Source of the DNA: a virus
Lineage: Duplodnaviria > Caudoviricetes
IMG/VR virus record: IMGVR_UViG_3300031673_009818
Coordinates: 1-56,899 of that record
Direction: 5' to 3' (one strand)
Length of the DNA: 56,899 nt
Shown here: positions 25,027 to 56,899 of the stretch, piece after piece
Layout: every line of letters begins with the position of its first letter
Position numbering within the stretch: the first letter of the stretch is position 1
The notes under the pieces: generated by a model
Database searches by the model: none
What the model saw: only the letters and a program-made list of their open reading frames with translations
What the model was told of the DNA's origin: nothing
Translations under genes and position numbers: made by a program

Positions 25027-25187
25027 TGATAATCAGGAGGTTATAAACAAAAGCTGCTAAAGAAACAACTTAAAACAACTAATAACACCTAATACACTGA
25101 TATATAGAGCGTTGTATGTCGCTTAGAGTCGCATAGAATATTTTTGATGTACAATTATACGGTATATCGCAAGGAAAATGAGTTAAA
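25027..25187 (+). repeat. Dispersed 161-bp element, copy 3
   Basis: Gapless alignment to other copies. Confidence 0.9.
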
Positions 25188-25189
25188 AT

Positions 25190-30815: not shown

Positions 30816-31991
30816 TTATATGAATTTTTGAACGTTATTATTAGCAAAATCAGTAACAAAAATATTATTTTCATTTACTGTAATTCCATATGGAGCATTA
30901 AACTCCCCATCCCCACTTCCAGCACTTCCAAATTTTGAAACAAAATTGCCAACTAAATCAAATTTCTGAACTCGGTCATTTGAACTATCAGTAACAAAAA
31001 TATTATTTTCATTTACTGTAATTCCATATGGAGCATTAAACTGACCATCCCCACTTCCATAACTTCCAAATTTTGAAACAAAATTGCCAACTAAATCAAA
31101 TTTCTGAACTCGGTCATTTGAACTATCAGTAACAAAAATATTATTTTCATTTACTGTAATTCCATATGGAGCATAAAACTGACCATCCCCACTTCCATAA
31201 CTTCCAAATTTTGAAACAAAATTGCCAACTAAATCAAATTTCTGAACTCGGTCATTTCCCAAATCAGTTATAAAAATATTAGTGGAATTAATCGCAATTC
31301 CAACACCTCCATTAAACTGACCATCTGCACTTCCTACACTTCCAAATTTTGAAACAAAAGTTCCAACTAAATCAAATATCTGAACTCTATTATTTCCATA
31401 ATCAGCAACAAAAATATTATTTTCATTTACTGTAATTCCATGTGGGTTACTAAACTGACCATCACCACTGCCAACACTCCCAAATTCAGAAACAAAATTA
31501 CCATTTAAATCAAATATCTGAACTCTGTGATTTCCATGATCAGTAACAAAAATATTATTTTCATTTACTGTAATTCCATATGAAGCATTAAACTGACCAT
31601 CACCTGTTCCGGTACTTCCCCACTTACTCAAAAAATCACCTCCAATATCATTAAACTCAACAAACCTCCCCACCACCGCATTACTACCATCAATATTAAC
31701 CGAATAATACCAACCTGAAGGAATGTAATTAGAACCTATCAAAACTACATCAAACGAATTTGTATCAATATCTGAAATAGTATCACCTGGCTCAATTATA
31801 TCATCATTTTTTACAAAATAAACAAATCCATCTTGTAATGTCTGGACGTTAATTGCATGGTTAGTGGTTGTTTTGGTGGATGCCAACAAAACATTAAATT
31901 TTCCTATATCTAAAGAATTTTTAATTAAATTTTCCTGAGTAGTCGATAATTTATCGATTTTAACTGCTACTATTGGAGTTTGTATTATCAT
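30816..31991 (-). CDS. NHL-repeat six-bladed beta-propeller protein (paralogue 1)
   Basis: Six 47-aa NHL repeats, some nearly identical. Confidence 0.9.
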   Translation of the reverse strand: MIIQTPIVAVKIDKLSTTQENLIKNSLDIGKFNVLLASTKTTTNHAINVQTLQDGFVYFVKNDDIIEPGDTISDIDTNSFDVVLIGSNYIPSGWYYSVNIDGSNAVVGRFVEFNDIGGDFLSKWGSTGTGDGQFNASYGITVNENNIFVTDHGNHRVQIFDLNGNFVSEFGSVGSGDGQFSNPHGITVNENNIFVADYGNNRVQIFDLVGTFVSKFGSVGSADGQFNGGVGIAINSTNIFITDLGNDRVQKFDLVGNFVSKFGSYGSGDGQFYAPYGITVNENNIFVTDSSNDRVQKFDLVGNFVSKFGSYGSGDGQFNAPYGITVNENNIFVTDSSNDRVQKFDLVGNFVSKFGSAGSGDGEFNAPYGITVNENNIFVTDFANNNVQKFI

Positions 31992-40610: not shown

Positions 40611-41753
40611 TTATGAGTTTACGATTGCTGCATAAGTTTTGTTAGGGGTTAACATTTGTGTTAGGAATTTACGATAAATACCCATCACAAAGGCCCTGGA
40701 AGTTACCTTGTTCCATTCAGGAGTAATTAACCAACCCCTCATTGAAGGAACAGCGGCTAACAATCTACGCATTTGAGAAGATTGAGCGATTAAATCGTTC
40801 ATGGTTATGATTTCAACCGGCTGTCTTTGTAAAACATTACCAGTTGCAATAACCCATACTTGATCTGTAGTAACCCACTGTTCTGGATCGCCAGCATCAT
40901 TGGTAAATGTCTGATTATAAGTAAAAATGTGATAAATACCAACAGCTCCCTTTTGGACTGATTCACGATAAGTTGCGCCTTTTGGAATATTTTTATTCAT
41001 GCTTGAAGATACATCTCTCACACGCTCAACCCTGTAATTTCTTCTTTGATTTGAATCATCCTTATAATCATCTGAATTAACATAAGCTTTGTAAGATGAA
41101 CGACTCATTAGAATAATAAACTCATCATCCCCACAATTACCCCTGTCAGATACTTGTTCACACCAACGATCCATATCTTGATATGGTTTCATAGTTGATG
41201 CATTTGCAATTATCCATTTTAAATTAGCGGTTGTAATCGTTTCGCTATTGGAAGCATCCCTACCAAAATCGATAGTTTGATAATTATCAAATTGGATGGT
41301 GCCAGTTTTCAAAATTTGCTGAACATGGCTATCAGCCGCACGCTTAATCATTTCAATGCATAAATTTGATGCATTTCTGGTACGCTCAACCAATACCGGT
41401 GCCTGGCTTCTTTGCACAGTCATTGTTTTAAAATTCACCATGTATTCCTGATTTTGAATCAGGTCATTTGTATTAATTGAAAAACCGTTGCCATATTCAG
41501 GAGCCGTGAAAAGTTCATCCGTGAATTTGGTATCTTTGATTAAAGTAGCCTCCGAACTTTCCGCTATATCTTTTGCAACGGGTCGGAAATAAACCTTCCC
41601 CATTACCCTTATTTTTGGCTCTTTCTGAGGCGGAGCTTCAACTGCCATTCCTGACAAACCATGATCTTCTTTATAAACATCTGGAACATATGTGATTAAT
41701 CCCGAAATTAGATTGGGAATTAATTCTTGTATTGAAAAACTTTGTACTGGCAT
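40611..41753 (-). CDS. Major capsid protein (lambda gpE family)
   Basis: QILKTGTI...IDFGRDASN...W...P..D; follows decoration protein. Confidence 0.85.
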   Translation of the reverse strand: MPVQSFSIQELIPNLISGLITYVPDVYKEDHGLSGMAVEAPPQKEPKIRVMGKVYFRPVAKDIAESSEATLIKDTKFTDELFTAPEYGNGFSINTNDLIQNQEYMVNFKTMTVQRSQAPVLVERTRNASNLCIEMIKRAADSHVQQILKTGTIQFDNYQTIDFGRDASNSETITTANLKWIIANASTMKPYQDMDRWCEQVSDRGNCGDDEFIILMSRSSYKAYVNSDDYKDDSNQRRNYRVERVRDVSSSMNKNIPKGATYRESVQKGAVGIYHIFTYNQTFTNDAGDPEQWVTTDQVWVIATGNVLQRQPVEIITMNDLIAQSSQMRRLLAAVPSMRGWLITPEWNKVTSRAFVMGIYRKFLTQMLTPNKTYAAIVNS

Positions 41754-43329: not shown

Positions 43330-43368
43330 AAAATAGTAAATTATTTAAAATAACAACTCACAATATAC

Positions 43369-43529
43369 TGATAATTAGATTGTTACATCCATGTATCAAC
43401 AAAGAAACAACTAATAACAACTAATATCAATTAATGTTCTGACAATCAACATATTACATGTCTGTTAGAATGCAATGTAATATTTTTACTGTATAATTGT
43501 ACATTATATTGCAAGGAAATTGAGTTAAA
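43369..43529 (+). repeat. Dispersed 161-bp element, copy 4
   Basis: Gapless alignment; same orientation as copies 1-3 although flanking genes are - strand. Confidence 0.88.
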
Positions 43530-43683
43530 CATCTAATAATTGCGGTTCGGGCAAATTTTCTTTCTCCACCACAACCACCATCTTTTTACACTTAGGACAA
43601 ATTTTCCTAATCACCCCTACAAACTCACCTTCAAATAAAATAGGCTGCCTACACTCACTATTGTCACATCGGTATTTTTTCAT
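43525..43683 (-). CDS. Mu Com-like zinc-ribbon protein
   Basis: YRCDNSECRQPILFEGEFVGVIRKICPKCKK. Confidence 0.65.
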   Translation of the reverse strand: MKKYRCDNSECRQPILFEGEFVGVIRKICPKCKKMVVVVEKENLPEPQLLDV

Positions 43684-45334
43684 CTTTTTCCGGATGTAAA
43701 TCTTTTGGAATTTGACTTGCTTCATTGGCAACCTGGGTTAAGACACCTTCATAGTCACCTCCACTAACAGCATTTATAATATTTTCGAAAGTATTATAAG
43801 GTATTAATTCCCTATACTTTTCAGGTACCTGCTCTTTAAGTGATTTGATAAATTTTAGTGGATCTATTGGTTTTAATTTTGTTCCTTCAAAAGAACTATT
43901 GGTAATTGCCTGAATTGTAATAATATCATCATCATTGTAAGCTTTCAATAATGGCGGGCAATCAATACCTCCTTTTAAAACTTGCAAATAAATAAACATA
44001 TCGAACACCTTCTTATATAACTGATTTGCTGGTATTAATTCGGTCAAAACATCTAAAACAAACTGAAAGTCAGACCTTGCACCCATCGAAGCCGTATAAT
44101 TTGAATTATAAGAACTAATTAAAACTTCATAAGGCTGGCCAATTGCAGCGGATAAGGTTTGCATTGTGCTTTTTAAATAATCGCCCTGGTCGCTTTGCGA
44201 ATTTGGGTTTAAAATTTTCGCTTTGACCCCTTTTGGCAGGTCCATTACAATACCATTTCCATTGAGCTTAAATTCGGCTGCATTTGCACTCATAGCAACC
44301 TCTGCGTCAGTTGCACATTCTGCACTTTCGAGAGGTGCACCCATATTTAAAGAGCTTAACGAATTATCATTAAATACTTTCTCAACTGTACTGTTTTGAT
44401 CTTTTTCATAAGCAAAAACCATTTGTGAAAGTAATTGGGCGTTTTTTGAATTGGCAATCAAATAATCATTGACATGTTTCAGTGTTTCAAAAATATGACT
44501 AATCAAAGGCATCGAACGGGTTTCGCCTTGCTTTTGCAAATCAGATTGCTTATACAACCAAGCAGACCTTATTTTTGTTCCAGGAAAAAAAGCACTTATT
44601 CGCTTTGTACCAAAATCTAAATTTTTAGGTTCCGGAGTGAAAACACCGTTTGAAATATCAGTTTGGATTAAAATATGATAGGCAACTACTTCGTTCTTAT
44701 CATTAAATTCCACACCTTCATTAACACTATTTCCTTTTTGCACCTCATCATTGGTAAGTATAGGATTAGTTACGCATTGACCACTTATAACCTGAATGTT
44801 TGGAAATCCGTTTTTAATTCTCATCAATAAAAGTACATCACCATCACCACAAGCATTGAAATCTGTATGCCTTGATATTTCATGCAAATTTTTTTCACCT
44901 GAATAATCAGAAAGTAATGTTTTTGCAAAATTCCTAAATAAATATTCGGTGTCCTGTATAAATTTTCTTTGTTTTTCTTTTCCAATTTCTTCACTGCCAT
45001 AATAATCAATAAATGGTTTCTCAAAAGGCCTGGAATTAAAAAGTAAACCGGAACCTATTTGCCAGTTGACCCTTTTTTGAACCATCAAACCTGCAAGGTG
45101 GTTTTTTAGTAGAAATTCCCAACTTCGAACCCTTAACTGTTCATAATCAATTATTATTTCTTTAGGAACTCCAAGTTCATTAATTGTATTTTCACCAGTA
45201 AATAATTGATAATTAATAGCATATCTACCCAATAAATTAGTCAATTCAGCATTTTCAGAACTTAATTTATGTGTTTTTTCCTGCAAATCTTGATTTACCG
45301 ATGATATTTTTTCGATTGTTTTTTTACCAAACAT
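43664..45334 (-). CDS. Portal protein (lambda family)
   Basis: LRVRS..L..N; IGSGL; DGDVL; EGVEFN; GETRSMP; IGQPYEVL; NYTAS. Confidence 0.88.
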   Translation of the reverse strand: MFGKKTIEKISSVNQDLQEKTHKLSSENAELTNLLGRYAINYQLFTGENTINELGVPKEIIIDYEQLRVRSWEFLLKNHLAGLMVQKRVNWQIGSGLLFNSRPFEKPFIDYYGSEEIGKEKQRKFIQDTEYLFRNFAKTLLSDYSGEKNLHEISRHTDFNACGDGDVLLLMRIKNGFPNIQVISGQCVTNPILTNDEVQKGNSVNEGVEFNDKNEVVAYHILIQTDISNGVFTPEPKNLDFGTKRISAFFPGTKIRSAWLYKQSDLQKQGETRSMPLISHIFETLKHVNDYLIANSKNAQLLSQMVFAYEKDQNSTVEKVFNDNSLSSLNMGAPLESAECATDAEVAMSANAAEFKLNGNGIVMDLPKGVKAKILNPNSQSDQGDYLKSTMQTLSAAIGQPYEVLISSYNSNYTASMGARSDFQFVLDVLTELIPANQLYKKVFDMFIYLQVLKGGIDCPPLLKAYNDDDIITIQAITNSSFEGTKLKPIDPLKFIKSLKEQVPEKYRELIPYNTFENIINAVSGGDYEGVLTQVANEASQIPKDLHPEKDEKIPM

Positions 45335-45335
45335 A

Positions 45336-45590
45336 TTAACAGTTTTTTACTTTTATAAAATAACCCCTGCCTAATTTTGCATCAATGTTTGCAATTTGCT
45401 CATTTATGTATTTCTTCATTTTAATTAATTCGTCAAGTGACTGGGTTTCTGCCTGATGAGTTGTTTCCTGATTTGAATAGGTGTATCTTTTGTTTTTTTG
45501 CTTAATTATGGCTAATATTTGAGCATTTATTGCAGATAATTGCTCAACCAAATCAGCCCTTTCTTGTGTTAATTCCTCAGTTGTTGCCAT
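45336..45590 (-). CDS. Head completion protein (gpW-like)
   Basis: Small helix-hairpin-helix ORF directly before portal. Confidence 0.65.
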   Translation of the reverse strand: MATTEELTQERADLVEQLSAINAQILAIIKQKNKRYTYSNQETTHQAETQSLDELIKMKKYINEQIANIDAKLGRGYFIKVKNC

Positions 45591-45605
45591 ATATAATTAT
45601 ATTAA

Positions 45606-45636
45606 TTTACAAATATACAAAAAATTACTATATTTG
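45606..45636. promoter_or_regulatory. Overlapping divergent promoters
   Basis: TATATTTG on - (45617-45610, toward gpW) and on + (45629-45636, with TTTA 19 nt upstream). Confidence 0.7.
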
Positions 45637-45639
45637 TGG

Positions 45640-45697
45640 TTCATAAGATTGTTTTACCATTTATTACCCGGCCCTGTACTCAGCAGGGCTTTTTTTT
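45640..45697 (+). ncRNA. Candidate ~57-nt trans-antisense sRNA (sRNA1)
   Basis: Promoter, then TTCATAAGATTGTTTTACCATTT, then GCCCTG-N7-CAGGGC-T8; seed is the reverse complement of early-gene start regions. Confidence 0.7.
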
Positions 45698-45747
45698 GTT
45701 AAAAAATGTTAAATAGTTACATTGTGTTGTTTTTTGTTGTATCTTTG
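45697..45747 (+). promoter_or_regulatory. Island promoter (copy 1) with direct-repeat motifs
   Basis: TGTTAAA x2, TGTTGT-N4-TGTTGT, TATCTTTG; near-copy at 51360-51411. Confidence 0.75.
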
Positions 45748-45770
45748 TAGTGTAATTAAAAAACAAACTT

Positions 45771-45920
45771 ATGAAAACAAGCAACGAAAAAATAAAGAGC
45801 CTTGATAAGGCAATAAGTAGCATGGCTTTGAGAATTGAAGAAATACAAAAACAAAATGAAAAAATAACCTCGCTAATCAAAAACCAAACCTATGAAACCA
45901 TTAAAAAATTTAAATATTAA
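45771..45920 (+). CDS. 49-aa hypothetical protein
   Basis: First ATG ORF after promoter; a second short ORF follows at 45892-46023. Confidence 0.5.
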   Translation: MKTSNEKIKSLDKAISSMALRIEEIQKQNEKITSLIKNQTYETIKKFKY

Positions 45921-46023
45921 AGAAAAAATGAAGCTTATCGATGAATTAAATCGAAAGCTGAAACATGCACTTTTAGAGTTGATAAGAAAAATAAATGAAA
46001 CAAGTAAATTAATTAAAAAATAA

Positions 46024-46095
46024 CCCACTACTCCAAGGAAACCGATGGGGGCATTAACAAAAAAATAATGGCAGGTTCGATTCCTGATAGTGGGG
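46024..46095 (+). ncRNA. tRNA-like RNA with aberrant anticodon loop
   Basis: CCCACTA/TAGTGGG acceptor; CAGG-TTCGATT-CCTG T-arm; CATTA-ACAAAAAAA-TAATG arm. Confidence 0.55.
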
Positions 46096-46206
46096 CAAAA
46101 TAAAAACCACAGTTTTAACTTTAAAAAATTGAAAGGAGTAGATTTAACAACTAAAAATCACTGATTAAAATTAATCCTGAGTAGTATTAATTTAAAAAAG
46201 TGATAA

Positions 46207-46632
46207 ATGAATAAAGTAATTTATACTGATAAATGGGTAACTATTTATCTGGTAAACGGATTCAATAAATTATGGCTTGAATTTAAATGGAATGACATGA
46301 GTATTCCTCTTGATAACTTAATAGAAGCACACACAAGGGCAATAGAGGTTGCCGTTGCCAATAGCATAAAAACCTTTATGGCTCGTTTAGAAAATACAAA
46401 AAAGGGTACAGAATTATCAGAAGCTTGTCTCACTTGGTGGGGCACGATTTGGGTAAAAGTGCTGGTATCAAAAGGCGTAAAGAGAATTATAAGCATTCAT
46501 AAAAAACAGGACAAAATTGAATGGGCTATGGATAAGCAAAAGGCAAGATCCTGGGAGACACCATCAAAAAATGCAGGAATCGAAGGTTTTGACCTTGATG
46601 ATTACAACGAAAGCTGGAAAGGCATAGTTTAA
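46207..46632 (+). CDS. Hypothetical protein (possible SpoIIAA/STAS-like fold)
   Basis: 141-aa alpha/beta pattern; weak recognition. Confidence 0.55.
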   Translation: MNKVIYTDKWVTIYLVNGFNKLWLEFKWNDMSIPLDNLIEAHTRAIEVAVANSIKTFMARLENTKKGTELSEACLTWWGTIWVKVLVSKGVKRIISIHKKQDKIEWAMDKQKARSWETPSKNAGIEGFDLDDYNESWKGIV

Positions 46633-46700
46633 CTCAAAAACGTAAATAACCAATATAACCTAACCTATTTTTTAAATTTTTAAATTAAATAAAAAAAAGA

Positions 46701-46907
46701 ATGGGTTTAAATAACATATTAAAAAAATACTTCAATATTGCTGATCAAGTTAAAAATATTACTATAAAATTAACTAATACAGTAAATCAGTACAGTGAAT
46801 TGCTTGACAAACATGAAGAAATTCATAGAGAAACACTTAGAAAGTGGGAAAACGCCAAAAAAGAACTTGAAAGTCAAGAATATGGTGGTATAAATTACAA
46901 AAAATAA
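46701..46907 (+). CDS. Hypothetical protein
   Basis: ATG ORF. Confidence 0.55.
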   Translation: MGLNNILKKYFNIADQVKNITIKLTNTVNQYSELLDKHEEIHRETLRKWENAKKELESQEYGGINYKK

Positions 46908-46910
46908 GCT

Positions 46911-47099
46911 ATGGAAACAGAATTTTTAATAATAATTTTGGCTATAATATTAATAATTATTTCTTTTATTATGGGCTGCAAAATTGGAAAACTTAAGGCC
47001 GACAAGGCCTTCGAAAGTGAGATGTTAAAGGTTATAGATAAGGTTCATTGTGAAACAAATACTCTTATCAATAATTACGAAAAAAGCAAAGAACTCTAA
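46911..47099 (+). CDS. Small single-TM protein
   Basis: N-terminal hydrophobic helix. Confidence 0.6.
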   Translation: METEFLIIILAIILIIISFIMGCKIGKLKADKAFESEMLKVIDKVHCETNTLINNYEKSKEL

Positions 47100-47148
47100 A
47101 AAAATACTTATCGACCAAGCCGTTTTTCAACTAAAAAAAACGGACAAA

Positions 47149-47277
47149 ATGGAAGAAACAACAAAATGCCCCGTTTGTGGCGACGAAGTAGAACAAGATT
47201 CAATAATAGTTTATTGCAAAAATTGTGGATTTAACATAAGAAAAAAAGAAAACGACCCTAAACCAAAATCCTCTTAA
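47149..47277 (+). CDS. Small zinc-ribbon protein
   Basis: CPVCG...CKNCG. Confidence 0.55.
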   Translation: MEETTKCPVCGDEVEQDSIIVYCKNCGFNIRKKENDPKPKSS

Positions 47278-47594
47278 TTAATTAAATTCAGCATATGAAG
47301 TTTAGAATTATTTTAAAAACGTTTGATTTGTCTGCAAAATCGGAGAAATCAATTAAAAAAGTAATCAAAAAAACAGAGAAAAATGACAAAAAGAAGAAAA
47401 GCAGGCATGCGCATGCGAGCACACAGACAGCATAAGCTAATAATACGCAGAAAGTAATTAACCAGGCCACACATAGATGTGGCCTAAAAAAAACAAAATG
47501 AAAAAAATAAATACAATATTAAGAATCACATCCATATTAATAGTTATATCTATCTTATCAATAGCAGCATTTATAAGAAAAATATTTGAATTAA

Positions 47595-47882
47595 TCATGT
47601 GCCTTGTTCATAAACCTTAACGAAAACAGGTTCACCAGGCGCGTTCCTTCCATCAGCAAAAATAACATACGCCCAAAAAGCCCACGTTCCAGGTGCGTCC
47701 AATTCAGCGTCCAGAAATTCATAATATAAATCTTCGGTGCCTGAAATTATTGCCTCCCAATAATCTATTGTTTCATCAGGTTTTTTGTAACCTATTCTCA
47801 CAGTTGGTGCACCTGTTAATACTACACCTGTTTGCAATGTTAGCTTTAGATTACTTTGATTTACGTATATTTTGCCGTTCAT
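47595..47882 (-). CDS. Small Ig-like/BppU-N-like structural protein
   Basis: YKKPD...W.A...LYY...ELDAPGTW...YV.FADG...PGEP. Confidence 0.6.
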   Translation of the reverse strand: MNGKIYVNQSNLKLTLQTGVVLTGAPTVRIGYKKPDETIDYWEAIISGTEDLYYEFLDAELDAPGTWAFWAYVIFADGRNAPGEPVFVKVYEQGT

Positions 47883-47895
47883 TTTTTTTTTGGTG

Positions 47896-48110
47896 TTAAA
47901 TTGTTATAGTCCATCCATTTCCAATCAAATTATTATAAACTGTGTCACTTGCCGCTGTTCTTGCTGTATTTGCGCGTTCGCTGTGAACGCAAACATTAGT
48001 AATATTGTTATTAATTTTTTCATAAATTTAACCCTCCTGAGATTGGCACGTTTGATAAATCCAGCATTCCTGTTAAATTACAGCTATTTATAGTAATGGA
48101 TTTAATATTT
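47896..48110 (-). pseudogene. Mosaic of gene remnants
   Basis: LRR-like fragment, signal-peptide start at 48023 and an out-of-frame C-terminus ARTAASDTVYNNLIGNGWTITI*. Confidence 0.5.
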
Positions 48111-48127
48111 ACGTTCTAGTATTTATT

Positions 48128-50266
48128 TTATATTAGATTTATTTCATTTCTAATTGCATTTATATATGGGTCATTTTTTAATAACGTCCATTCTATCCTA
48201 TGAAACAATCCAGGTATTTCATAATCTGAAAATGTTTTTCCTAATGATGTTAGAATCCCTTCCCCTGTTTGTGAATTAGCTTTCCCACTATCTGTACTTC
48301 CATACACAACAATTGTTTTTTTAGTTCCAACTCTATCTATTCTTATATCCGCTCCTGTTGGGGTGTAAGTTCCACCATCCATATGAGAATGAGGTATATA
48401 ACATTTCCATAATGCTGCAATTGTATCATTCCAACATCCTATATAATGAACACCAATCGCACCTCTTGAAAATCCGCAAAGAGATACATTATTTGAATCT
48501 GCATTATAAGTTGATAGCACTTGTGTTAATATATTTTGCCATAGTGTTACTGTTGCACTTGGATCGTCAGTTGGATTACCATTTCCCCACCAGCTATTTA
48601 ACATTGCTGTTCCTGCTGTATTTATGCAAGGTACTTGAACAACTATAAAATTACCTTTTGTTAGTCCAAATCCTAACATCGGATCGTTTGGTAGACCTGT
48701 ATGCCCTAAAAATATATTTCCAGGAATATCAAATATAACTTTATGAGGTGTTCCCGTTGATGAATAATTTTTCGGTAAATATACAGAGTACCATATATTT
48801 GCATCATATTGTATCTTAATTCTTTTATCTGGTATTGCCCCTCCCAGTTCAATCTCAGGATTAATAATCCCATTTGTCTTATTTAATACACTCAATAGCT
48901 CATTTGTAAATTTTTGAAAATAAAATACATGAAGGTTATTTGTAAACTTTTTACCTATCCAAACAAAAGATAGTTTTCTATCTGAATAAGTAAAACCCCC
49001 TATCCCATCTGATACTGCATGAATTAGTATATTCGCACTAAAAACTGCTTGAGAGGTCAAATTAGCACCCATCTCAACTACACCATTTTTATATATAGTT
49101 GTAGTTGTTCCATTTTTCCATGCAGTGTATAATCCTGTGCTGATATACTCTGCAAAAATAGTAGTAGATCCATCTGTTAGTAGTGCAGCTTTACAATATG
49201 AATTTGCTGCATCTTTTGCAGACAAATAACATTTATGAGTTGCATCCTGATAATTTCCAACATCACCTACTCCGCTTATAGAATCAGTCATACTACTCAA
49301 TGCAATTGATAGGTCTGTTGCTGATAATGTATTGATATTGATATGTGTGTCTATATATCCCCCAGCACTAACAGATCCTATATTATCTCTTGTGATACTT
49401 CCCACATCGGTTAATCTATACGCCCCATCGCTATCAACAGGATTAAACAGGTTGTATTTCTGGCTATCATAAGTAGTACCATATAGCAAATAACATGCGG
49501 TTGCTTGTGATGTAATTTTATATAAATCCATCATATTAAACCACTTATCAATATACTGTCTATGTAATTCGGTAATAGTAACTACTGCTTTATAAGCCGT
49601 TGTCTTAGGGTTTTCAGACTCAGTATAATGATATAATTGGGTAATCTCCTCTACGGATAAAAATCTATTGTAAATATACACATCATCTATAATGGTTGCG
49701 TCTGGGTATGCAGCAGTTTTATTTATTGTTAGTGTATCGGTTTTAGCCCCTAAGTTAGATAATGTACCTGAATATTTTAATACTTTATCAATATAAATCT
49801 CGTAATTTTTAGCTGCATTTATTTGAATTGTGACAAATTGCCAAACATTATCAGTTATTTCTGCGACTGAACTAAGATAATCATAACCAGAACCTACCCT
49901 CCCTATAAAAACTTTATTAAAATACGAGCCAAAATATAATCCGCCTGTTGCGTCAAACTTAAAAGCTGTATACTGCCCACTTCCAACAGGCTTTTTAAGC
50001 CAAAAATTAAAAGATAAAGTAGACTCGTTGAAATTATTATCTAAGGTTATGTATTGTGCAGAATTATATGTATAAGCACTACTGATAGCCCCAAATTGAT
50101 TAGTGGTTAATGTTGCCCCTGTTACTGTTCCATTGTGACCATTGCCACTTAAATCATTTGCGTTACCATTGAATAAATAATAAGCAACTGGATTTGCTGG
50201 TAAAATATATTTTACAGGGGGATACACTTCCCCTATTAATCCCCTATTTGCTAGTAATAAACTCAT
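48128..50266 (-). CDS. LamG/ConA-like lectin domains fused to a C-terminal alpha/beta hydrolase
   Basis: AYYLFNGNANDLSGNGHNGT...IDDVYIYNRFLSVEEITQLY; GFSRG nucleophile elbow; distal D and H. Confidence 0.8.
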   Translation of the reverse strand: MSLLLANRGLIGEVYPPVKYILPANPVAYYLFNGNANDLSGNGHNGTVTGATLTTNQFGAISSAYTYNSAQYITLDNNFNESTLSFNFWLKKPVGSGQYTAFKFDATGGLYFGSYFNKVFIGRVGSGYDYLSSVAEITDNVWQFVTIQINAAKNYEIYIDKVLKYSGTLSNLGAKTDTLTINKTAAYPDATIIDDVYIYNRFLSVEEITQLYHYTESENPKTTAYKAVVTITELHRQYIDKWFNMMDLYKITSQATACYLLYGTTYDSQKYNLFNPVDSDGAYRLTDVGSITRDNIGSVSAGGYIDTHININTLSATDLSIALSSMTDSISGVGDVGNYQDATHKCYLSAKDAANSYCKAALLTDGSTTIFAEYISTGLYTAWKNGTTTTIYKNGVVEMGANLTSQAVFSANILIHAVSDGIGGFTYSDRKLSFVWIGKKFTNNLHVFYFQKFTNELLSVLNKTNGIINPEIELGGAIPDKRIKIQYDANIWYSVYLPKNYSSTGTPHKVIFDIPGNIFLGHTGLPNDPMLGFGLTKGNFIVVQVPCINTAGTAMLNSWWGNGNPTDDPSATVTLWQNILTQVLSTYNADSNNVSLCGFSRGAIGVHYIGCWNDTIAALWKCYIPHSHMDGGTYTPTGADIRIDRVGTKKTIVVYGSTDSGKANSQTGEGILTSLGKTFSDYEIPGLFHRIEWTLLKNDPYINAIRNEINLI

Positions 50267-50278
50267 ATTATTTATTTT

Positions 50279-51088
50279 TTAAGTTGCTGGTTCGGCGGCT
50301 TTTATAAGCCAAACGGGAAGCGTTGGTGAATTATATCTTTCTAATTGTATTTCTATTATATCATCTGTTCCAGCAGATATTGTTAATGTTTTAGCTATAC
50401 TATCCCATATTCCTATGTTGGGCGCAATTGATAACTTAAACTCATGCTCTGCTGTAGTTGCAAATGTTATTATGACCGTCCCCGTAAATTGATATACATT
50501 GCCTATTAATTTTGTATTAACACTATTTATTAGTACTACTGAAAAATTTGTATTAATCGTTAATGCGCCGACGCTTAATCTAGGCTCAAACATTGCCTCT
50601 TGACTGCCATTACAGTCTAATGTCAGTACTCCCGTAGCTAGTGCGGGCTCTGTTGCTGGTATATATATATTAGCATCAGTTAAGAATGCTAACGTTCCGT
50701 CTTTCGCTTGTAATGTAGCTGTGTAACTAGTAGCCCCTGTATTCGCTGTAGTTACTACAACAACCCCTGTACCTATTCCTTTTATTGCTAATTTATCCTT
50801 ATCAAACGTTTTCAATCCTATTACTGACTGTATTCCTGCAAGTAACATGTCTCCTACTCCATCGCCTACGATATCCCACTTGGCTGGCGTAGTTATTGGC
50901 GATTCCCCTGGGGCTGTTGTTGCATTGCACAAATATTCTTTGAAACCTGAATTATCAATAATAACAGATTCTCCTGAAACGTATACCCTTGTGTTATCGT
51001 ATAAGGATTGATATACTTCTGAAAAATTTTCATTTATTATCGTTCTGGCAACAAGTCCCGTATCACTGTTATTAATTATTTGTTTCAT
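50279..51088 (-). CDS. Probable virion fibre/structural protein
   Basis: DTGLVARTIINENFSEVY; QSVIGLKTF; ATLQAKDGTLA fibre-like motifs. Confidence 0.6.
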   Translation of the reverse strand: MKQIINNSDTGLVARTIINENFSEVYQSLYDNTRVYVSGESVIIDNSGFKEYLCNATTAPGESPITTPAKWDIVGDGVGDMLLAGIQSVIGLKTFDKDKLAIKGIGTGVVVVTTANTGATSYTATLQAKDGTLAFLTDANIYIPATEPALATGVLTLDCNGSQEAMFEPRLSVGALTINTNFSVVLINSVNTKLIGNVYQFTGTVIITFATTAEHEFKLSIAPNIGIWDSIAKTLTISAGTDDIIEIQLERYNSPTLPVWLIKAAEPAT

Positions 51089-51099
51089 TTCTATTAATT

Positions 51100-51318
51100 T
51101 TAATCAATCCAAAATTCATCATCAATCCAAATTCCAGAATCATTCCAAAAACCAGTAGCTAAAATCCAATTTGTAATTACATCTTCAATCCCAATAGGAC
51201 TAACATGGACCAATTGATTTGACATAGTACTACCATCAACAATATCATTAGTAATTTTACTAACAAACGTTTTTCCAATAGTAATCAAACTTGGATATGT
51301 AATATTGTCTTTTGCCAT
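51100..51318 (-). CDS. Small protein with WxD repeats
   Basis: WILATGFWNDSGIWIDDEFWID; TATATTTG box at 51333-51326. Confidence 0.6.
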   Translation of the reverse strand: MAKDNITYPSLITIGKTFVSKITNDIVDGSTMSNQLVHVSPIGIEDVITNWILATGFWNDSGIWIDDEFWID

Positions 51319-51359
51319 TAATCTACAAATATACAAAAAAAAAGAATAAGTAATAAAAA

Positions 51360-51411
51360 TGTTAAATAATGTTAAAATAGTTACATCATGTTGTTTTTTG
51401 TTGTATCTTTA
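51360..51411 (+). promoter_or_regulatory. Island promoter (copy 2)
   Basis: Near-copy of 45697-45747; ATG 4 nt after the -7 box (probably leaderless). Confidence 0.7.
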
Positions 51412-51415
51412 TACT

Positions 51416-51826
51416 ATGAAAACAACAAAAGAAATATTAATAGGAGGACAGGCTTTAAGAAACTTAGGAAGTGACAGACACACAAATGACGTTGATTATC
51501 TTATCAATGACATTACTACAAAAGAAGCTTTTATTACTTCTGAAAAAGTTGATTTTTTAAATGCAAACGGAAACAAATTTTTCGCAGAAATTTTCAAAAT
51601 AGAAGAAGGAAACACAGAAGCAACTCCACAAAGCCTATTTGAACTTAAAGCTTATGCACTTGTTCAACATTGCCAGAACATGAATTGGGCGAAAGCTGAT
51701 GCATGCGAGTACGATATGAAATTTTTAGTTAGAAATTTCGGTTGTTCGGCCAAAATAGTTAGAAAATATGTTAGTGCTGGTGAACTTTCTGAAATTCAAA
51801 AAGTTGTTAATTCGGTAAGAAAATAA
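51416..51826 (+). CDS. Small nucleotidyltransferase (AbiEii/DUF1814/MenT-like motif)
   Basis: LIGGQAL..LGSDRHTNDVDYL; later LKAYAL and KADACEYD. Confidence 0.65.
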   Translation: MKTTKEILIGGQALRNLGSDRHTNDVDYLINDITTKEAFITSEKVDFLNANGNKFFAEIFKIEEGNTEATPQSLFELKAYALVQHCQNMNWAKADACEYDMKFLVRNFGCSAKIVRKYVSAGELSEIQKVVNSVRK

Positions 51827-51848
51827 TATTCACTTAAAAATTTACAAA

Positions 51849-52106
51849 ATGAAAAACTGGAAAAATTACAAAATTACAAAAAAAGCCATTAAAGATGCTT
51901 TGACATCTGAAAAACAATTTATTTATCACATGAATTACTATTGTAGTGATTTTAATGATGTTTTAATACTTTCTTGCAGAGCCATAGAGCCTAAGATTAC
52001 GCAAAAAGAAACAATCAATTACATTTACGATAACATCGGTGATGTTATAATAAATGCTAAATTTAATATAGAGATAGTTAAAGAATATCTCGATTTAGTT
52101 CCGTAA
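51849..52106 (+). CDS. Cassette ORF, hypothetical
   Basis: Shared TATTCACTTAAAAATTTACAAAATG start. Confidence 0.65.
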   Translation: MKNWKNYKITKKAIKDALTSEKQFIYHMNYYCSDFNDVLILSCRAIEPKITQKETINYIYDNIGDVIINAKFNIEIVKEYLDLVP

Positions 52107-52133
52107 AGTTTCTGTAAATTCTTTGCGAACTTC

Positions 52134-52182
52134 GCCCCGACACCTCCCCAGGTTCGGGGTTGTGGTGGTAGAAGGTAGTATT
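52134..52182 (+). repeat. 49-bp hairpin repeat R1
   Basis: GCCCCGACACCTCCCCAGGTTCGGGGTTGTGGTGGTAGAAGGTAGTATT. Confidence 0.95.
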
Positions 52183-52199
52183 AATTAAAAATTTACGAA

Positions 52200-52694
52200 A
52201 TGTTAAAAATTGGAACAAAAAAAGAAACAGGAAAAGACATGATGTTCAGTAGTATTGAAGAAAACGGCCAGCTCTGGTTAAAAGAGTACGCTTTACCACA
52301 AAAAAGGTGGTTGTATTTTTCAGAAATAGGAACAATGCTAAACGGATGTGAGCGTACAGGAGGCACACACTCCTTTAGTACATATTTCCCTAACTCAAAA
52401 ACAGAAGATGTGATGGATAATATCGAAGATTGCAACGAAAATTCTCAGAGATTCCAGAAATTACTATTGAAACAGAATGAAATCACGTTCATAGAGCGTG
52501 GAAATCCAAATTCTCTGAACACAATTAAAGGTGATAGGGTAACTCCTTATTATCACCTAACAGGAGATGAAAAAAACCAAATTGCTAATTTCAAGAACAA
52601 TAATAAAGAAAAACAATTTCTTGTTAAAATAGGAGATTGGTTTTTAACAACCACGAAAAAAAAGGGCACTGAAACTGTTCTTTTTGGAATCTAA
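52200..52694 (+). CDS. Cassette ORF, hypothetical
   Basis: Between R1 and R2. Confidence 0.7.
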   Translation: MLKIGTKKETGKDMMFSSIEENGQLWLKEYALPQKRWLYFSEIGTMLNGCERTGGTHSFSTYFPNSKTEDVMDNIEDCNENSQRFQKLLLKQNEITFIERGNPNSLNTIKGDRVTPYYHLTGDEKNQIANFKNNNKEKQFLVKIGDWFLTTTKKKGTETVLFGI

Positions 52695-52711
52695 TAGTTC
52701 TTGCATACCGC

Positions 52712-52760
52712 GCCCCGACACCTCCCCAGGTTCGGGGTTGTGGTGGTAGAAGATAGTATT
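52712..52760 (+). repeat. 49-bp hairpin repeat R2
   Basis: 48/49 identical to R1. Confidence 0.95.
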
Positions 52761-52777
52761 CACTTAAAAACAACAAG

Positions 52778-52987
52778 ATGAAAACAACAGCAAAAGAAGT
52801 ATTTGAAAGTGATAATTGGATTATCATTAAAATATCACTAGGATTAAAAAAAAATGTTCGAATAGATGCCAGAACCCGCTTTCATATAGCTGATGGCAAA
52901 AATAGTTATTCAGAATGGATTTCTGTAGCTTATGCCAACAAACTATACGGCAAATCGATTTTTAGTAATAAAAAATTTCAATTTTAA
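52778..52987 (+). CDS. Cassette ORF, hypothetical
   Basis: Follows R2. Confidence 0.65.
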   Translation: MKTTAKEVFESDNWIIIKISLGLKKNVRIDARTRFHIADGKNSYSEWISVAYANKLYGKSIFSNKKFQF

Positions 52988-52998
52988 AAATTTGCAAG

Positions 52999-53190
52999 AT
53001 GGAAACAACAAAACAATATCAAAGAAACAACGGCACAATAGAAATATCTATTGATACCTATACCCGAAATGGTGATATAATTGGCGATATTGAAATCAAT
53101 TGCAATTGTGGTGAAGAAAAATTAATAACAGGTGAACATAAAAGGCATGACACTATTTATTGTAAATGTGGCGAAAGGTTTTCTTATTAG
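52999..53190 (+). CDS. Cassette ORF, zinc-ribbon
   Basis: CNCG...CKCG. Confidence 0.65.
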   Translation: METTKQYQRNNGTIEISIDTYTRNGDIIGDIEINCNCGEEKLITGEHKRHDTIYCKCGERFSY

Positions 53191-53227
53191 CCCCGTAAGT
53201 TTCTGCAAATTCTTGCGAACTTTCGCA

Positions 53228-53431
53228 ATGAATGATTCATCAGATTGGAATGAAAAGTTTTACACAAATAAAAATAACGAAACAAATATATACATTAATG
53301 GAATTCAAATTAATGTTACCACAATGTTTGACGCTTGCATTACAAAAAGATATTTCGTCAGAAGTGAATTTGATTCTTATTTTACACCTGAGTTAGAAAA
53401 AATGATTGATTTAGAATTAGAATTAATTTAA
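53228..53431 (+). CDS. Cassette ORF, hypothetical
   Basis: ATG 53228 in frame with track ORF; start uncertain. Confidence 0.45.
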   Translation: MNDSSDWNEKFYTNKNNETNIYINGIQINVTTMFDACITKRYFVRSEFDSYFTPELEKMIDLELELI

Positions 53432-53455
53432 TTATTCACTTAAAAATTTGCAAAG

Positions 53456-53668
53456 ATGAAAATAACGAAAAAAAACATCCAAAAATTAACCGATGGGGAC
53501 ATCGGAACTATCATTGAAAAAAGGCACGGAATGACAAATCTTTTAAGTCATGTTAAAAAAACTGAAAATATAATATCAGTTGAGGCAAGAGAAGACCAAG
53601 GAGCAACGGTATTTTCAATAGATTCATTTTGTGAAGCATACAAAGGGAAAAATCTAATTTGGATATAG
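53456..53668 (+). CDS. Cassette ORF, hypothetical
   Basis: Shared TATTCACTTAAAAATTTGCAAAGATG start. Confidence 0.65.
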   Translation: MKITKKNIQKLTDGDIGTIIEKRHGMTNLLSHVKKTENIISVEAREDQGATVFSIDSFCEAYKGKNLIWI

Positions 53669-53691
53669 TCCAATGAATTTCAAAGCGTAAT

Positions 53692-53740
53692 GCCCCGACA
53701 CCTACCCAGGTTCGGGGTTGTGGCGGTAGAAGATAGTATT
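53692..53740 (+). repeat. 49-bp hairpin repeat R3
   Basis: 47/49 identical to R2; changes are in the loop and tail. Confidence 0.95.
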
Positions 53741-53759
53741 AATTAAAAAACAAAAAAAT

Positions 53760-53960
53760 ATGGGAAAATATGATTTGGAATATTTCAAAAGTCAAGACGA
53801 TCCAAAAAATAGCTATTTGAAGGCTATAGGCCTTGATAATGACGGCCACATCGTCTGGGAAAAATACGGGTGTGATAAACGCGACTGCAATTGTATGGGT
53901 TCATGGAGTAACGGGGAAACAGATCAAATTAAGACATACATATCACGGCCAGACATGTAA
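53760..53960 (+). CDS. Cassette ORF, hypothetical
   Basis: Between R3 and R4. Confidence 0.65.
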   Translation: MGKYDLEYFKSQDDPKNSYLKAIGLDNDGHIVWEKYGCDKRDCNCMGSWSNGETDQIKTYISRPDM

Positions 53961-53981
53961 AAAATAGAAAAATTATTAACA

Positions 53982-54008
53982 GCCCCGACACCTCCCCAGG
54001 TTCGGGGC
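53982..54008 (+). repeat. Hairpin-only repeat R4
   Basis: GCCCCGACACCTCCCCAGGTTCGGGGC ending 2 nt from the terL stop. Confidence 0.9.
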
Positions 54009-54010
54009 CA

Positions 54011-56116
54011 TTAACTCAACAAAACCCCATTCTCTAGCGCCGCTTCAATAATCAACTTACAAGCATTTTCCCAACTAGGTTTAATTACCTGGCTTTTATA
54101 AACTGCTTTTTTATAAGGATTTGAATTTGAGCAAATCAAATCAATCATAAAAATACGACAAAAAACACCATAAATATTAACGTCCCAAAAGTGATTTTGA
54201 ATACCAGTTTTCTTTTTCTCCCAAAGGTACTTATCAACTCCGCCCTCAACTTTTTTTACAATTTTACTTTCAGATTCAAAATGAGCAAAATAATTTCTAT
54301 ATGTATATTTATTTATTTCAGTATCATATTCTGGATAGTTCATAAAATGTTCGTCCTGATGTAATTGTCCTGAATCATCAATGTAACTATTTGAATCTAT
54401 GTATTTTGAAACCCAATCTTTTACAACATTTACGTTTAATAAATAAAACCCCCCAGTTGAACTAGTCCGATAAATATTACCAAAATCAGTTTTAGTTTGA
54501 ACAATGAATTTTTCAGGATCTTCGCCCTTAACACCTATACACAAAATACCCTTTTGCCTCATTCGCCTAACAAATTCTAATGCATAGTCCTGAAAAGCCC
54601 CAATATCAACAGCTATAATAGTTAATTGTTTTTCATGTTTTCCAAATTTTTGCATTACAATTTTCTCAAATTCAGTCCAAATACTGTCCATTACATCAAA
54701 CCTATAAGTCATTTTTGTACGTTCAACTTCAAGTTTACCAGTATTAATACCTTCTTTTTCTAGTGCCAATCGTTCAATTTTTGGAATGAAAGTACCAATA
54801 CTTCCAGCATCTATACTGTAAGTTGGCCCCTTAGCTGAATGCCCAATTAATTCATAATCCAAACGCCCATCGTTCTCATATCCGTTCAAGTCACATGCCA
54901 GACTAATAATCATAATTTCACCATTACCATCTTTTTTTGATAACTCAAACGGACATTCACCAATTTTATAATCCCTTCTATTTTGCTGTAATTTTGTGGA
55001 TTTTATTTTTATTCCTTCTGGTTTGTAGGGCTTTCCTTCTATTGAATTTGTAAAACTCTGTATTTCAGAATCACTCTTAACGCCTCCACGGGGCCATGCT
55101 GCCTGATATTCTTTTGCAAAATCATACCAGTTATCCATAGTTAGAGGTGCATATAATGCCGAAATCCTATAACTTACAAATCGTTTGTCTTCTCGCTCAA
55201 TTGTCGGTTTCCAAATGCCATTATTAAGCATTTCATATTTATGTTTTTTTTCCTGAAAATCATTTTCGCATTTTCCACAACGGTATCTTACACTTTTTTC
55301 AATGACCTCATCATTTCGAACATCAAATATAACTCCATATCTCGTATTATTTTCATTCCTTTCATTCCATACCAGCTCAATATATTCACCACATTTCGGA
55401 CACGGAACATAATATACGTTTTGATTTCCACGCAAATAAAGCTTATAAATCAAACTGCTATCCAAAAGTAAAGGTGAACTGATATAAAATATTTTCTTTG
55501 AGTCCCCAAAACTTCTAGTCCTATCTTCCATCAACTTCAAAAAACTACCTGAATCTTTTGAAATACCTTTGAAAGCGTCCAATTCGTCGGCAATAACTGA
55601 TCCAGCAGTTACCTGCCTCATATTAGTTGCACTTTGCCCACCAAAATTGAAAAGCTCAAACCCTCCGGAGAAAAACTTTTGTTGCATAGTGTCACCTTTT
55701 GAATTTGATTGAACCCCTGAACCTTTTCCAAGCAAGTGCCTTATATCACAACCATCTATACCATCATCCACGCCCTTCATTGTTTTTGTTGCTAACGTAT
55801 CATTAGCGGATAATAGCATAATATTCGTAGGTCGTTCACTCATAACATAAGGAACTCCATTATGAACTATACAAAAAGTGCCCCCGGTTCGAACCCCCTT
55901 CATTAATGTAACGTGAGTAACGGGATCATACGGGCTTAAGTGCTCAACTATTTGACGCATATAAGGCGTATTTTTCCAATCGAATTGACCAAACATTCTT
56001 TCAGACACATGCCTTTGCACATATCTTTTTTGTTCAATATATTCTGATGGGCCTAATTCCTTTTCATCAAAATTTAATATTGAAGATGAATAAATTTGTT
56101 TTATTGAATTTACCAT
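54011..56116 (-). CDS. terL: Terminase large subunit (lambda GpA family)
   Basis: TPYMRQI; MKGVRTGGT; ADELDAF; ISSP; YYVPCPKCG; CGKC; SALYAP; NHFWD. Confidence 0.93.
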   Translation of the reverse strand: MVNSIKQIYSSSILNFDEKELGPSEYIEQKRYVQRHVSERMFGQFDWKNTPYMRQIVEHLSPYDPVTHVTLMKGVRTGGTFCIVHNGVPYVMSERPTNIMLLSANDTLATKTMKGVDDGIDGCDIRHLLGKGSGVQSNSKGDTMQQKFFSGGFELFNFGGQSATNMRQVTAGSVIADELDAFKGISKDSGSFLKLMEDRTRSFGDSKKIFYISSPLLLDSSLIYKLYLRGNQNVYYVPCPKCGEYIELVWNERNENNTRYGVIFDVRNDEVIEKSVRYRCGKCENDFQEKKHKYEMLNNGIWKPTIEREDKRFVSYRISALYAPLTMDNWYDFAKEYQAAWPRGGVKSDSEIQSFTNSIEGKPYKPEGIKIKSTKLQQNRRDYKIGECPFELSKKDGNGEIMIISLACDLNGYENDGRLDYELIGHSAKGPTYSIDAGSIGTFIPKIERLALEKEGINTGKLEVERTKMTYRFDVMDSIWTEFEKIVMQKFGKHEKQLTIIAVDIGAFQDYALEFVRRMRQKGILCIGVKGEDPEKFIVQTKTDFGNIYRTSSTGGFYLLNVNVVKDWVSKYIDSNSYIDDSGQLHQDEHFMNYPEYDTEINKYTYRNYFAHFESESKIVKKVEGGVDKYLWEKKKTGIQNHFWDVNIYGVFCRIFMIDLICSNSNPYKKAVYKSQVIKPSWENACKLIIEAALENGVLLS

Positions 56117-56736
56117 TTATTTAATAACGCGTAATCCTCCGCATGCTTAATTGCTTCGGGTTCTTGTTTTTTTATTCCCAATTTTAAAACTTCATTAAAT
56201 CCATGTTTGAATTTTTTCTTAAATCTTAGTTTGGTTTCAATATCTGCATCAAGTTCATTACATATTTGTTCGATTATTGAATTACCAAAATTTACAGTTT
56301 CGCCAAATATGCCCCTTATATTTCGACCACTCCACTCAATTATGAAATCCAAAGGCAATACCTTTGCTTTCTTTTTTAATAGTTCAATTTTCTTTAGTTC
56401 AGTATCAGCTTCTATTCTTTTTGTTTCTCGGTGTTTTTTTATTCCATCGATGGTATTGAATTTAAGTGAGTCAATATCTATTGATTCAAAATCGGATAGG
56501 TCTTGTGTTTCTTTTTTTGGTTTTGGTCTTGGTGAATTTGGGTTTACTTCTCTTTTCTGTATTTCGCGTTTTGGACGAATCATATTTTTTGCTATCCAGG
56601 CCTTATTAATCGGATGGTCTGTATCTATTTTTTTATATTCTTCTATTAGTTGCTTCCTGCCTACATATATGCCCACGTATTGAGATGATTTCCCAATTAA
56701 ATCAGCTACTTGTTTTCTTGTTTGAAGATTTGCCAT
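56110..56736 (-). CDS. terS: Terminase small subunit
   Basis: N-terminal HTH (TRKQVADLIGKSSQYV), coiled coil, overlaps terL start; TACCTTTG box at 56773-56766. Confidence 0.75.
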   Translation of the reverse strand: MANLQTRKQVADLIGKSSQYVGIYVGRKQLIEEYKKIDTDHPINKAWIAKNMIRPKREIQKREVNPNSPRPKPKKETQDLSDFESIDIDSLKFNTIDGIKKHRETKRIEADTELKKIELLKKKAKVLPLDFIIEWSGRNIRGIFGETVNFGNSIIEQICNELDADIETKLRFKKKFKHGFNEVLKLGIKKQEPEAIKHAEDYALLNKW

Positions 56737-56885
56737 TTTGTCATACCATTAAACCATTTAGCTCACAAAGGTAACAAAAATAAAACAATAATTTGTTGTA
56801 AAACAATTCTGTAATAGTTTATATATCATTGAAATCTGAATAAAACAATGATTCTGAAAAAATTCACAGTTTTTTTTTATCGCTA

Positions 56886-56899
56886 GGACAAGCACCCAT
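56886..56899. repeat. Right copy of 14-bp terminal direct repeat
   Basis: Identical to 2-15. Confidence 0.9.

Follow-up and report, generated by a model that had tools for sequence, protein, structure and literature searches.

An uncultured soil phage genome in IMG/VR (virus record IMGVR_UViG_3300031673_009818, 56,899 bp, rated 91% complete; this whole stretch of DNA is called the window below) carries, beside its large terminase gene (TerL), a row of small genes interspersed with copies of one GC-rich hairpin, and the question that this locus raises is what the repeated hairpin does there. A preliminary description of the sequence had taken the row for an integron-like, expression-ready platform of cassettes that are shuffled at the repeat without an integrase. 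We find that the element is real, and what most deserves further work is its conserved RNA motif. The reading that we favor as a whole, with moderate confidence, is that the repeat acts as a module that bounds small-gene cassettes within a hypervariable slot, where the cassettes would form an operon and the repeat would punctuate its RNA.

The repeat unit and its cassettes

The GC hairpin, GCCCCGACACCT(C/A)CCCAGGTTCGGGG, is 26 nt long and bulged, and occurs four times on the + strand (R1 to R4, at 52134, 52712, 53692 and 53982), with spacings of 578, 980 and 290 between copies. None would be expected by chance, and it was matched in 0/100 shuffles. The sole substitution within the hairpin, C>A in R3, falls in the loop. 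R1–R3 continue into a 23-nt tail, TTGTGG(T/C)GGTAGAAG(G/A)TAGTATT, which R4 lacks, and in these three copies the stem is followed by UUGU and no U-tract. On all of these points (the places of the four hairpins, the tail in R1–R3 with R4 as a hairpin only, the missing U-tract and the spared stem) the preliminary description was borne out. The features of the array are as follows.

51354-51415, + strand: promoter-like region, third copy of repeat family D15 (by D15 homology), with a -7-like box TATCTTTA at 51404-51411
51416-51826, + strand: ORF136, first gene of the putative operon, from a conserved family without a name
51849-52106, + strand: cassette ORF85, no family
52111-52129, + strand: hp1, a small hairpin of R1 (UCUGUAA-AUUCU-UUGCGAA), read from the sequence
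52134-52182, + strand: R1, GC hairpin (52134-52159) and tail (52160-52182), covariance-model score 76.7 bits
52200-52694, + strand: cassette ORF164, an ORFan whose sole match in a protein search was itself
52712-52760, + strand: R2, GC hairpin and tail, fold -28.1 kcal/mol, z -3.2
52778-52987, + strand: cassette ORF69, no PHROG or Pfam family
52999-53190, + strand: cassette ORF63 (from the open reading frame list), with CxC...CxC, zinc-ribbon-like by eye
53202-53219, + strand: hp1-only remnant, with GC hairpin, tail and leader gone (alignment with L092a)
53228-53431, + strand: cassette ORF67, in frame with the listed open reading frame 53132-53431
53456-53668, + strand: cassette ORF70 (from the open reading frame list)
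53692-53740, + strand: R3, GC hairpin (loop C>A) and tail (GGCGG variant), from repeat search, fold and covariance model
53760-53960, + strand: cassette ORF66 (from the open reading frame list)
53982-54007, no strand assigned: R4, a hairpin without tail in the 50-nt gap that separates the convergent ORF66 and TerL (fold)

The 49-bp repeat first reported is present, but it is part of a unit of ~100 nt that also includes hp1. The full unit runs from hp1, a small AU hairpin, through the GC hairpin and the tail UUGUGGYGGUAGAAG to a leader that is rich in A and includes the ATG; a 98-nt alignment around R1–R3 (repeat family D13) gave identities of 79% and 68%. The stem of hp1 is kept through double changes in related contigs (TCTGCAA/TTGCAGA in L007, TCCGTAA/TTACGGA in L059), and the A-rich leader (TATTCACTTAAAAA and similar) also stands free ahead of ORF85 and ORF70. 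Each cassette is composed, in order, of tail, A-rich leader, open reading frame (ORF), in some cases hp1, and GC hairpin. The four window hairpins fold at -18.8 to -28.1 kcal/mol. At R2 the 5' flank UACCGCG pairs with the tail, giving a hairpin of ~21 bp (duplex -9.2, rank 0.026). R4 folds on both strands (+ strand -18.8, z -5.9; - strand -26.9, z -4.4), on the - strand with an extended stem and then a U-rich run, and an R4-type element occupies the same place in L007 and in the metagenome contig L092.

The array comprises eight ORFs of 136, 85, 164, 69, 63, 67, 70 and 66 aa. The seven unrelated ORFs of 63–164 aa in the preliminary description hold up, with mostly TTAAAAA-type leaders (6/7 by reading); its list required amendment in that the fifth is 53228-53431 (67 aa), whose ATG directly follows the hp1 remnant, and in that an eighth gene, 51416-51826, starts the putative operon. 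No mutual similarity among the array ORFs was found by blastp, and none matched a PHROG or Pfam family. Anti-defence or host-takeover functions, thought likely in the preliminary description, are hypothetical for these ORFs. ORF136 has 484 related proteins at E<=0.001, with 70-93% identity among the 120 listed; these 120 had no Pfam domain and no name beyond 'hypothetical'. Its N-terminus (GGQALRNLGSDRHTNDVDYL) presumably resembles a minimal nucleotidyltransferase signature.

Exchange of cassettes in a hypervariable slot

The array lies in a slot of 8.4 kb (45591-54010, no strand assigned) between an 84-aa head-tail ORF plus the portal gene and TerL, the bounding genes all being on the - strand. 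Within this slot the repeat lies upstream of ORFans, and the slot itself, judged from its sizes in relatives, ranges from ~40 nt to 8.4 kb; in the window it contains a lectin-like block and the cassettes. In L007, which shares 96% of TerL amino acids and 92-95% of flanking nucleotides with the window, the slot is ~3.1 kb and has four repeat copies. Between the two slots the repeats alone align (79-93% over 26-94 nt), and no cassette protein is common to them. The slot of L008 (TerL 76%) has a single 108-aa ORF in 0.35 kb, and in L009 (TerL 77%) TerL adjoins the 84-aa ORF and portal with a gap of ~40 nt; the GC hairpin is absent from both of these loci.

Short metagenome contigs gave further arrangements. 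L092 has the order ORF63 (88% identical), a complete repeat, a new 103-aa ORF, repeat, ORF66, R4 and TerL, so that ORF66, itself 100% identical, has a different cassette upstream there. L094 runs from ORF70 (100% identical) through R3 into the new ORF of L092, and L131 carries ORF85, R1, a new 66-aa ORF, a 5'-truncated repeat and a new 63-aa ORF. L095 is identical to the window and L056 has other cassettes. In the search of viral and metagenome data that the preliminary description had proposed, intervening ORFs and gene content differed between relatives, and the identical order and content that would have spoken against its platform was not seen.

Differences between close relatives are bounded by repeat units (L007, L092, L094, L131, and variant contigs of the soil DNA runs X2 and X3). 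In X2 and X3 the L092-type form occurs at depths of 26-30 alongside the window form. Identity to the window breaks at any of four places: where hp1 starts, in either the 5' or the 3' half of the hairpin, or at the leader/ATG (L092, L094, L131, L056). As these junctions are scattered over the ~100-nt unit, they argue for homologous exchange rather than a single-site recombinase, and different ORFs are joined inside the repeat. No integrase or recombinase family was matched by the 78 window ORFs scanned against PHROGs, or in the Pfam scans. These data support a homologous shuffling of cassettes at the repeat, as the comparison of sequences suggests and as the preliminary description had proposed, of the kind known from the promoter-early stem-loop (PeSL) cassettes of T4-type phages (Arbiol et al. 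2010, PMC2839356; Comeau et al. 2014, PMC4122927). Recombination between repeats may be aided by the exonuclease module of the phage, represented by a YqaJ-like recombination exonuclease gene (10347-11102, + strand; PF09588 at 29.9 bits, the Pfam cut-off being 22; phrog_149).

The likeness to PeSLs extends to a repeated intergenic unit with a GC stem-loop and G-T pairs upstream of ORFans in a hyperplastic region, and to indels or replacements between close relatives that are bounded by the units and attributed to homologous recombination. The window unit differs in having no host-type promoter, in its second small hairpin hp1, and in a tail that is conserved across unrelated phages; it also belongs to a ~57 kb myophage with a probable Flavobacteriia-type host, which is not T4-like.

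Several other joints and rearrangements were recorded. A minor joint that goes back from 53453 to 51860, at a depth of 4.4, would fit a circle (as in the mini-circles that arise when neighboring PeSL motifs recombine), a duplication or another gene order, and a joint from 51834 to 52774 is suggestive only, its short side being just 30 nt. A joint from 52770 to 53693 was considered as an R2 x R3 deletion and rejected: the repeat accounts for the whole of its short side (49-60 nt), and an L092-type form is the better match for the 2946-nt contig. In the array of a relative, L005 (contig IMGVR_UViG_3300024262_000530), a 560-nt internal duplication (1431-1990 and 3195-3760) comprises the 3' part of a 233-aa ORF, hp1 and the hairpin, joined at a short shared word; it is either a product of illegitimate recombination or an assembly artefact. 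The lectin-like block of the window slot, on the - strand at 47367-51344, contains, beside ORFs of 269, 78 and 95 aa, one of 712 aa in which a ConA-like lectin domain was recognized (Laminin_G_3, 40.6 bits). All four soil DNA runs contain a contig form without this block, with 28 other letters instead, and since the block-less form is deeper than the window form in X2 and X3, the block is a minority insertion.

A wider hairpin family and its proposed role in RNA

The window hairpins belong to a family in which a variable, covarying stem is followed by CGGGG-UUUUGGUGGUA. Searching IMG/VR with the hairpin foot and tail gave 17 stretches in 16 contigs besides the window (GC 0.28-0.41), all 17 with a complementary 5' strand by inspection. 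In metagenomes, among the matches listed, the hairpin was present in at least 28/31 low-GC against 4/101 high-GC matches. Among the 120 bacterial-genome stretches listed, a loose hairpin test was passed by 0/3 low-GC and 10/117 high-GC stretches, the latter at chance level; no Bacteroidota-type hairpin copy was found among them, and neither was the host REP or terminator family that, by the preliminary description, would have spoken against its reading. The 20-nt degenerate pattern is loose, as 204 of the 252 listed metagenome and genome matches lie in DNA of GC >=0.42 without the hairpin. Three matches in a single metagenome contig were traced to a repeat in coding sequence.

A tail-only 15-mer scan of IMG/VR produced at least 118 matches, mostly coding, with ~7 of the top-folding rows being real members among the matches listed, and the exact 23-nt tail pattern had 0 matches there. 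Two 71-nt motif regions compared with GenBank phages by blastn gave chance matches only (E >=0.2). No Rfam model matched the hairpins at E<=1, whether in 45000-56899 or in 14 related loci, and none reached gathering score anywhere in the window. In the full-text literature the motif letters appeared only in unrelated primers, and a search for intergenic hairpins of Bacteroidetes or Flavobacterium phages yielded nothing on the element.

The stems vary and remain paired. Opposite UCGGGG we found CCCCGA, CCUCG and CCCUG; the apical stems include ACCU/AGGU, GCC/GGC, CAA/UUG, CUAA/UUAG, CGC/GCG and GGAUC/GAUUC; and wholly different stems, CAGCAGG/CCUGCU and GUCUGCAUA/UAUGCGGAC, are also paired. Counted from the folds, at least 8 unrelated apical or middle stems are all kept paired. 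The + strand folds better in 27/29 family copies (mean -21.3 vs -15.2 kcal/mol), and G.U pairs make up 71/477. RNAalifold on a plain MAFFT alignment recovered 3 pairs only, the stems being misaligned, and single folds and covariance-model alignments were used instead. In the covariance-model alignment 91.1% of cells were paired, against at most 61.5% when the partner was slid, and the covariation score was reached by 0/500 shuffles. The 5' flank pairs with the tail at rank <=0.05 against upstream control windows in 16/36 copies; within the window this pairing is present in R2 and not in the copies with hp1. These folds and alignments support the view that the structure is under selection in the sense RNA.

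All occurrences of the motif are intergenic and in sense orientation, with an ATG 6-47 nt downstream. Viral records carry 1-5 copies each, with all matches of E <1e-4 on one strand of their record. The motif directly follows the major head gene in L050, L080 and L086, and the SSB gene in L028. In a small-ORF array of the contig G008 the motif occupies four gaps and a Pistol ribozyme (74 bits) a fifth, and in L062 a Pistol lies ~300 nt upstream of the motif. Pistol ribozymes are known to be associated with phages (PMC4604425). The motif context and the presence of Pistol in the same arrays make an intercistronic role in RNA processing or punctuation plausible. By position, Pistol (RF02679) sequences were located in intercistronic gaps of small-ORF arrays at 7104-7168 of L271 (74 bits) and 703-765 of L062 (65 bits), two unrelated phage contigs with the motif. 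The 136-aa first ORFs of the window and G008 arrays, considered as possible relatives, are unrelated.

The Bacteroidota promoter pattern TTG-N17-21-TAnnTTTG precedes several gene or operon starts in the window (+ strand 611, 1951, 7813 and 17566; - strand 26079 and 56806). None occurs in the repeats, where the best -7 box match is 4/6, and a sigma-70 pattern scan found nothing in R1–R3. Of the 'expression-ready' cassettes proposed earlier, the leader for each cassette stands, but no recognizable host promoter accompanies it. Copies of D15 lie at 7786, 45690 and 51354; that at 7786 fits TTG-N20-TAnnTTTG and that at 51354 is one base off in each box. The simplest reading of this layout is one operon of promoterless cassettes, which would be transcribed from 51354-51415, each cassette having its own translation leader. 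Ordinary hairpin-T8 terminators occur elsewhere in the phage, for example at 45670, and a terminator scan flagged none of the four hairpins. In many family members the stem is followed by UUUU and then GGUGGUA.

Within the mRNA, the GC hairpin may combine with the G/U-rich stretch on its 3' side into one long irregular hairpin. Such a structure would punctuate the polycistronic transcript, as a partial terminator, a stabilizer of 3' ends or a site for an endonuclease of the RNase III kind, and R4 would end the array as well as terminate the convergent terminase transcript. Going further, we tentatively suggest that the hairpin with its invariant 3' strand (CGGGG-UUUUGGYGGUA-RAA) is an undescribed phage RNA signal at which a dedicated host or phage factor cuts or ends early and late polycistronic transcripts, the same job as that of Pistol, and that its copies create an integron-like operon of promoterless cassettes without an integrase; we hold this to be possible, at less than even chances. 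In T7, RNase III sites between the early genes are long irregular hairpins with an internal loop and no U-tract, the copies being alike. The window elements, as candidate cleavage sites, resemble these in being hairpins between the cistrons of a polycistronic phage mRNA, and differ in the host and in a 3' strand that is conserved far beyond one phage group. Cluster K mycobacteriophages have a conserved short sequence, SAS/ESAS, before many start codons, sometimes with an inverted repeat ahead; it is unrelated in sequence and has an actinobacterial host, and we know of no described role for it in cassette exchange.

Four other explanations were weighed. If the repeat were a true PeSL-type unit, the hairpin would terminate transcription from upstream, the tail and leader (TGGTGGTAGAAG...TAGTATTAATTAAAA) would be a promoter for a phage-modified or alternative-sigma polymerase, and each cassette would be its own transcription unit. 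PeSLs combine a promoter and a stem-loop in such positions (PMC2839356), the TAGTATTAATTAAAA of the repeat is similar to what directly follows the -7 box of D15 (TAGTGTAATTAAAA), and the tail sequence is kept whatever hairpin precedes it. We nevertheless regard this as unlikely, as neither a Bacteroidota -33/-7 match nor a sigma-70 match is present, the PHROG scan of the 78 window ORFs revealed neither a sigma nor a polymerase gene, and in some members the ATG follows 6-11 nt after the tail, too close for a normal start site to fit in between; moreover the tail pairs with the transcribed 5' flank in many copies, which indicates that it is selected as RNA. The preliminary description had also seen in R3 an ops core after a hairpin, as in JUMPStart. 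An element of that kind would be a loading site for a specialized NusG paralogue of RfaH or UpxY type and would give antitermination through the array. The 8-nt ops core is matched by GG(C/T)GGTAG at 8/8 positions in R3 and 7/8 in R1 and R2, and Bacteroidota do encode NusG paralogues. The 8-mer itself, GGCGGTAG, is found in one of three window copies, the others having GGTGGTAG; most family members have T where ops has C, many have GGTAA, and the C of R3 pairs with an upstream G. Further, ops acts as non-template DNA whereas pairing in RNA is seen for this motif, the element comes after each gene rather than after a promoter and is absent from the leader behind the promoter, the host group differs, and Rfam JUMPstart had no match at E<=1. 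We consider such a loading site improbable, and of the RNA-level signal proposed earlier the sense-strand structure is the part that stands, antitermination through ops being unsupported.

If the repeat were an attC-like site, it would be used by a site-specific or single-strand recombinase encoded elsewhere, making the array a true integron analogue. As in integrons, where cassettes are read from one upstream promoter, the small ORFs are promoterless, in one orientation and, on the reading above, served by one promoter, and an imperfect, bulged stem with one structurally favored strand lies at the 3' end of each cassette. The window differs in having no IntI, attI, R/L core boxes or R'/R'' core sites, and no GTTRRRY core was read at the foot of the stem. 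The scattered junctions, one of them in the leader outside the hairpin, point to homologous exchange; a recombination site would not be expected as a single copy behind a capsid gene, as the motif occurs in other phages, and the PHROG and Pfam scans of the window found no integrase or recombinase family. This explanation is very improbable in our view. Poorer still are the prospects of a mimic of a host CRISPR repeat (a solitary repeat unit or RNA anti-CRISPR): type I repeats do have a similar layout, with a conserved handle of ~10 nt behind the hairpin, and the motif is confined to phages, but the 120 listed bacterial-genome stretches have one match each and no array-like cluster, and the stems vary freely even within one phage genome, as those of a repeat mimic would not.

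A repeat that bounds cassettes and punctuates their RNA remains the reading that we prefer, and several points weigh against it. The covariation alignment was fitted to the model, and the 500-shuffle control ignores relatedness. The invariance of the tail is partly by construction, since the family was collected with a pattern that fixes the tail; the independent test is provided by second copies in the same contigs (L027, L035, L052 and G008), which have other stems and the same UGGUGGUA. The retention of GGYGGUA behind unrelated hairpins, for which this reading does not account, suggests that a specific factor is involved. The promoter-like region at 51354 fits the consensus imperfectly, and plain intrinsic termination is doubtful, as R1–R3 have no U-tract and hairpin-T8 terminators are used elsewhere. 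Finally, metagenome contigs may be chimeric at repeats.

Bacteroidota phages are abundant and their gene-expression signals are almost unknown. The element is a candidate RNA processing or attenuation signal in a phylum whose rules of translation and transcription are unlike those of E. coli. The locus also indicates that mosaic exchange of the T4-like kind works in an unrelated Flavobacteriia-type myophage, with no promoter in the repeat, and an RNA motif defined by sequence could help to locate boundaries between cistrons and arrays of variable genes in the genomes of uncultured phages.

The phage, its likely host and other repeats

A PHROG scan of the 78 window ORFs identified a myovirus gene set (sheath, tape measure, capsid, portal and TerL), all on the - strand, with a replication and recombination arm on the + strand. 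The principal genes are listed here.

34315-36636, - strand: tape measure (PHROG)
37893-39398, - strand: tail sheath (PHROG)
40611-41753, - strand: major head protein (PHROG)
43664-45334, - strand: portal (PHROG)
54011-56116, - strand: TerL, the conserved anchor of the slot (phrog_15 at 4.6e-99)

The window is a myophage of Flavobacteriia type. Its closest cultured TerL relatives are those of Flavobacterium columnare myophages (31.6% identity), and a megablast of 50000-56899 against GenBank phages gave no match. By reading of the window, start codons are preceded by A-rich stretches and no Shine-Dalgarno motifs. A Flavobacteriia-type host is likely, given the TerL kinship, these A-rich starts without Shine-Dalgarno motifs and the Bacteroidota promoter pattern.

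Other repeats were noted in the window. A second intergenic family of ~175 nt has four copies, 71-76% identical and all on the + strand (3326-3500, 14912-15086, 25019-25193 and 43361-43535), one of them within the head operon, which is on the - strand. The family has an invariant core, AAAGAAACAACT.A.AACAACTAATA, its consensus folds into two hairpins with 3 compensatory pairs, and it had no Rfam match. In the tail region, 29628-31991 holds two tandem paralogous ORFs (395 and 391 aa, phrog_22523) made of 138-nt (46-aa) repeats. A hexapeptide-repeat (LbH) transferase-like ORF at 783-1517 has an 18-nt tandem repeat (D1) as its framework and matches Pfam Hexapep at 7.6e-31. Two near-identical promoter-like repeats (D17, 594-641 and 1934-1981), which fit TTG-N19-TAnnTTTG, flank this ORF, as do two similar hairpin and T-run terminators near 736 and 1556.

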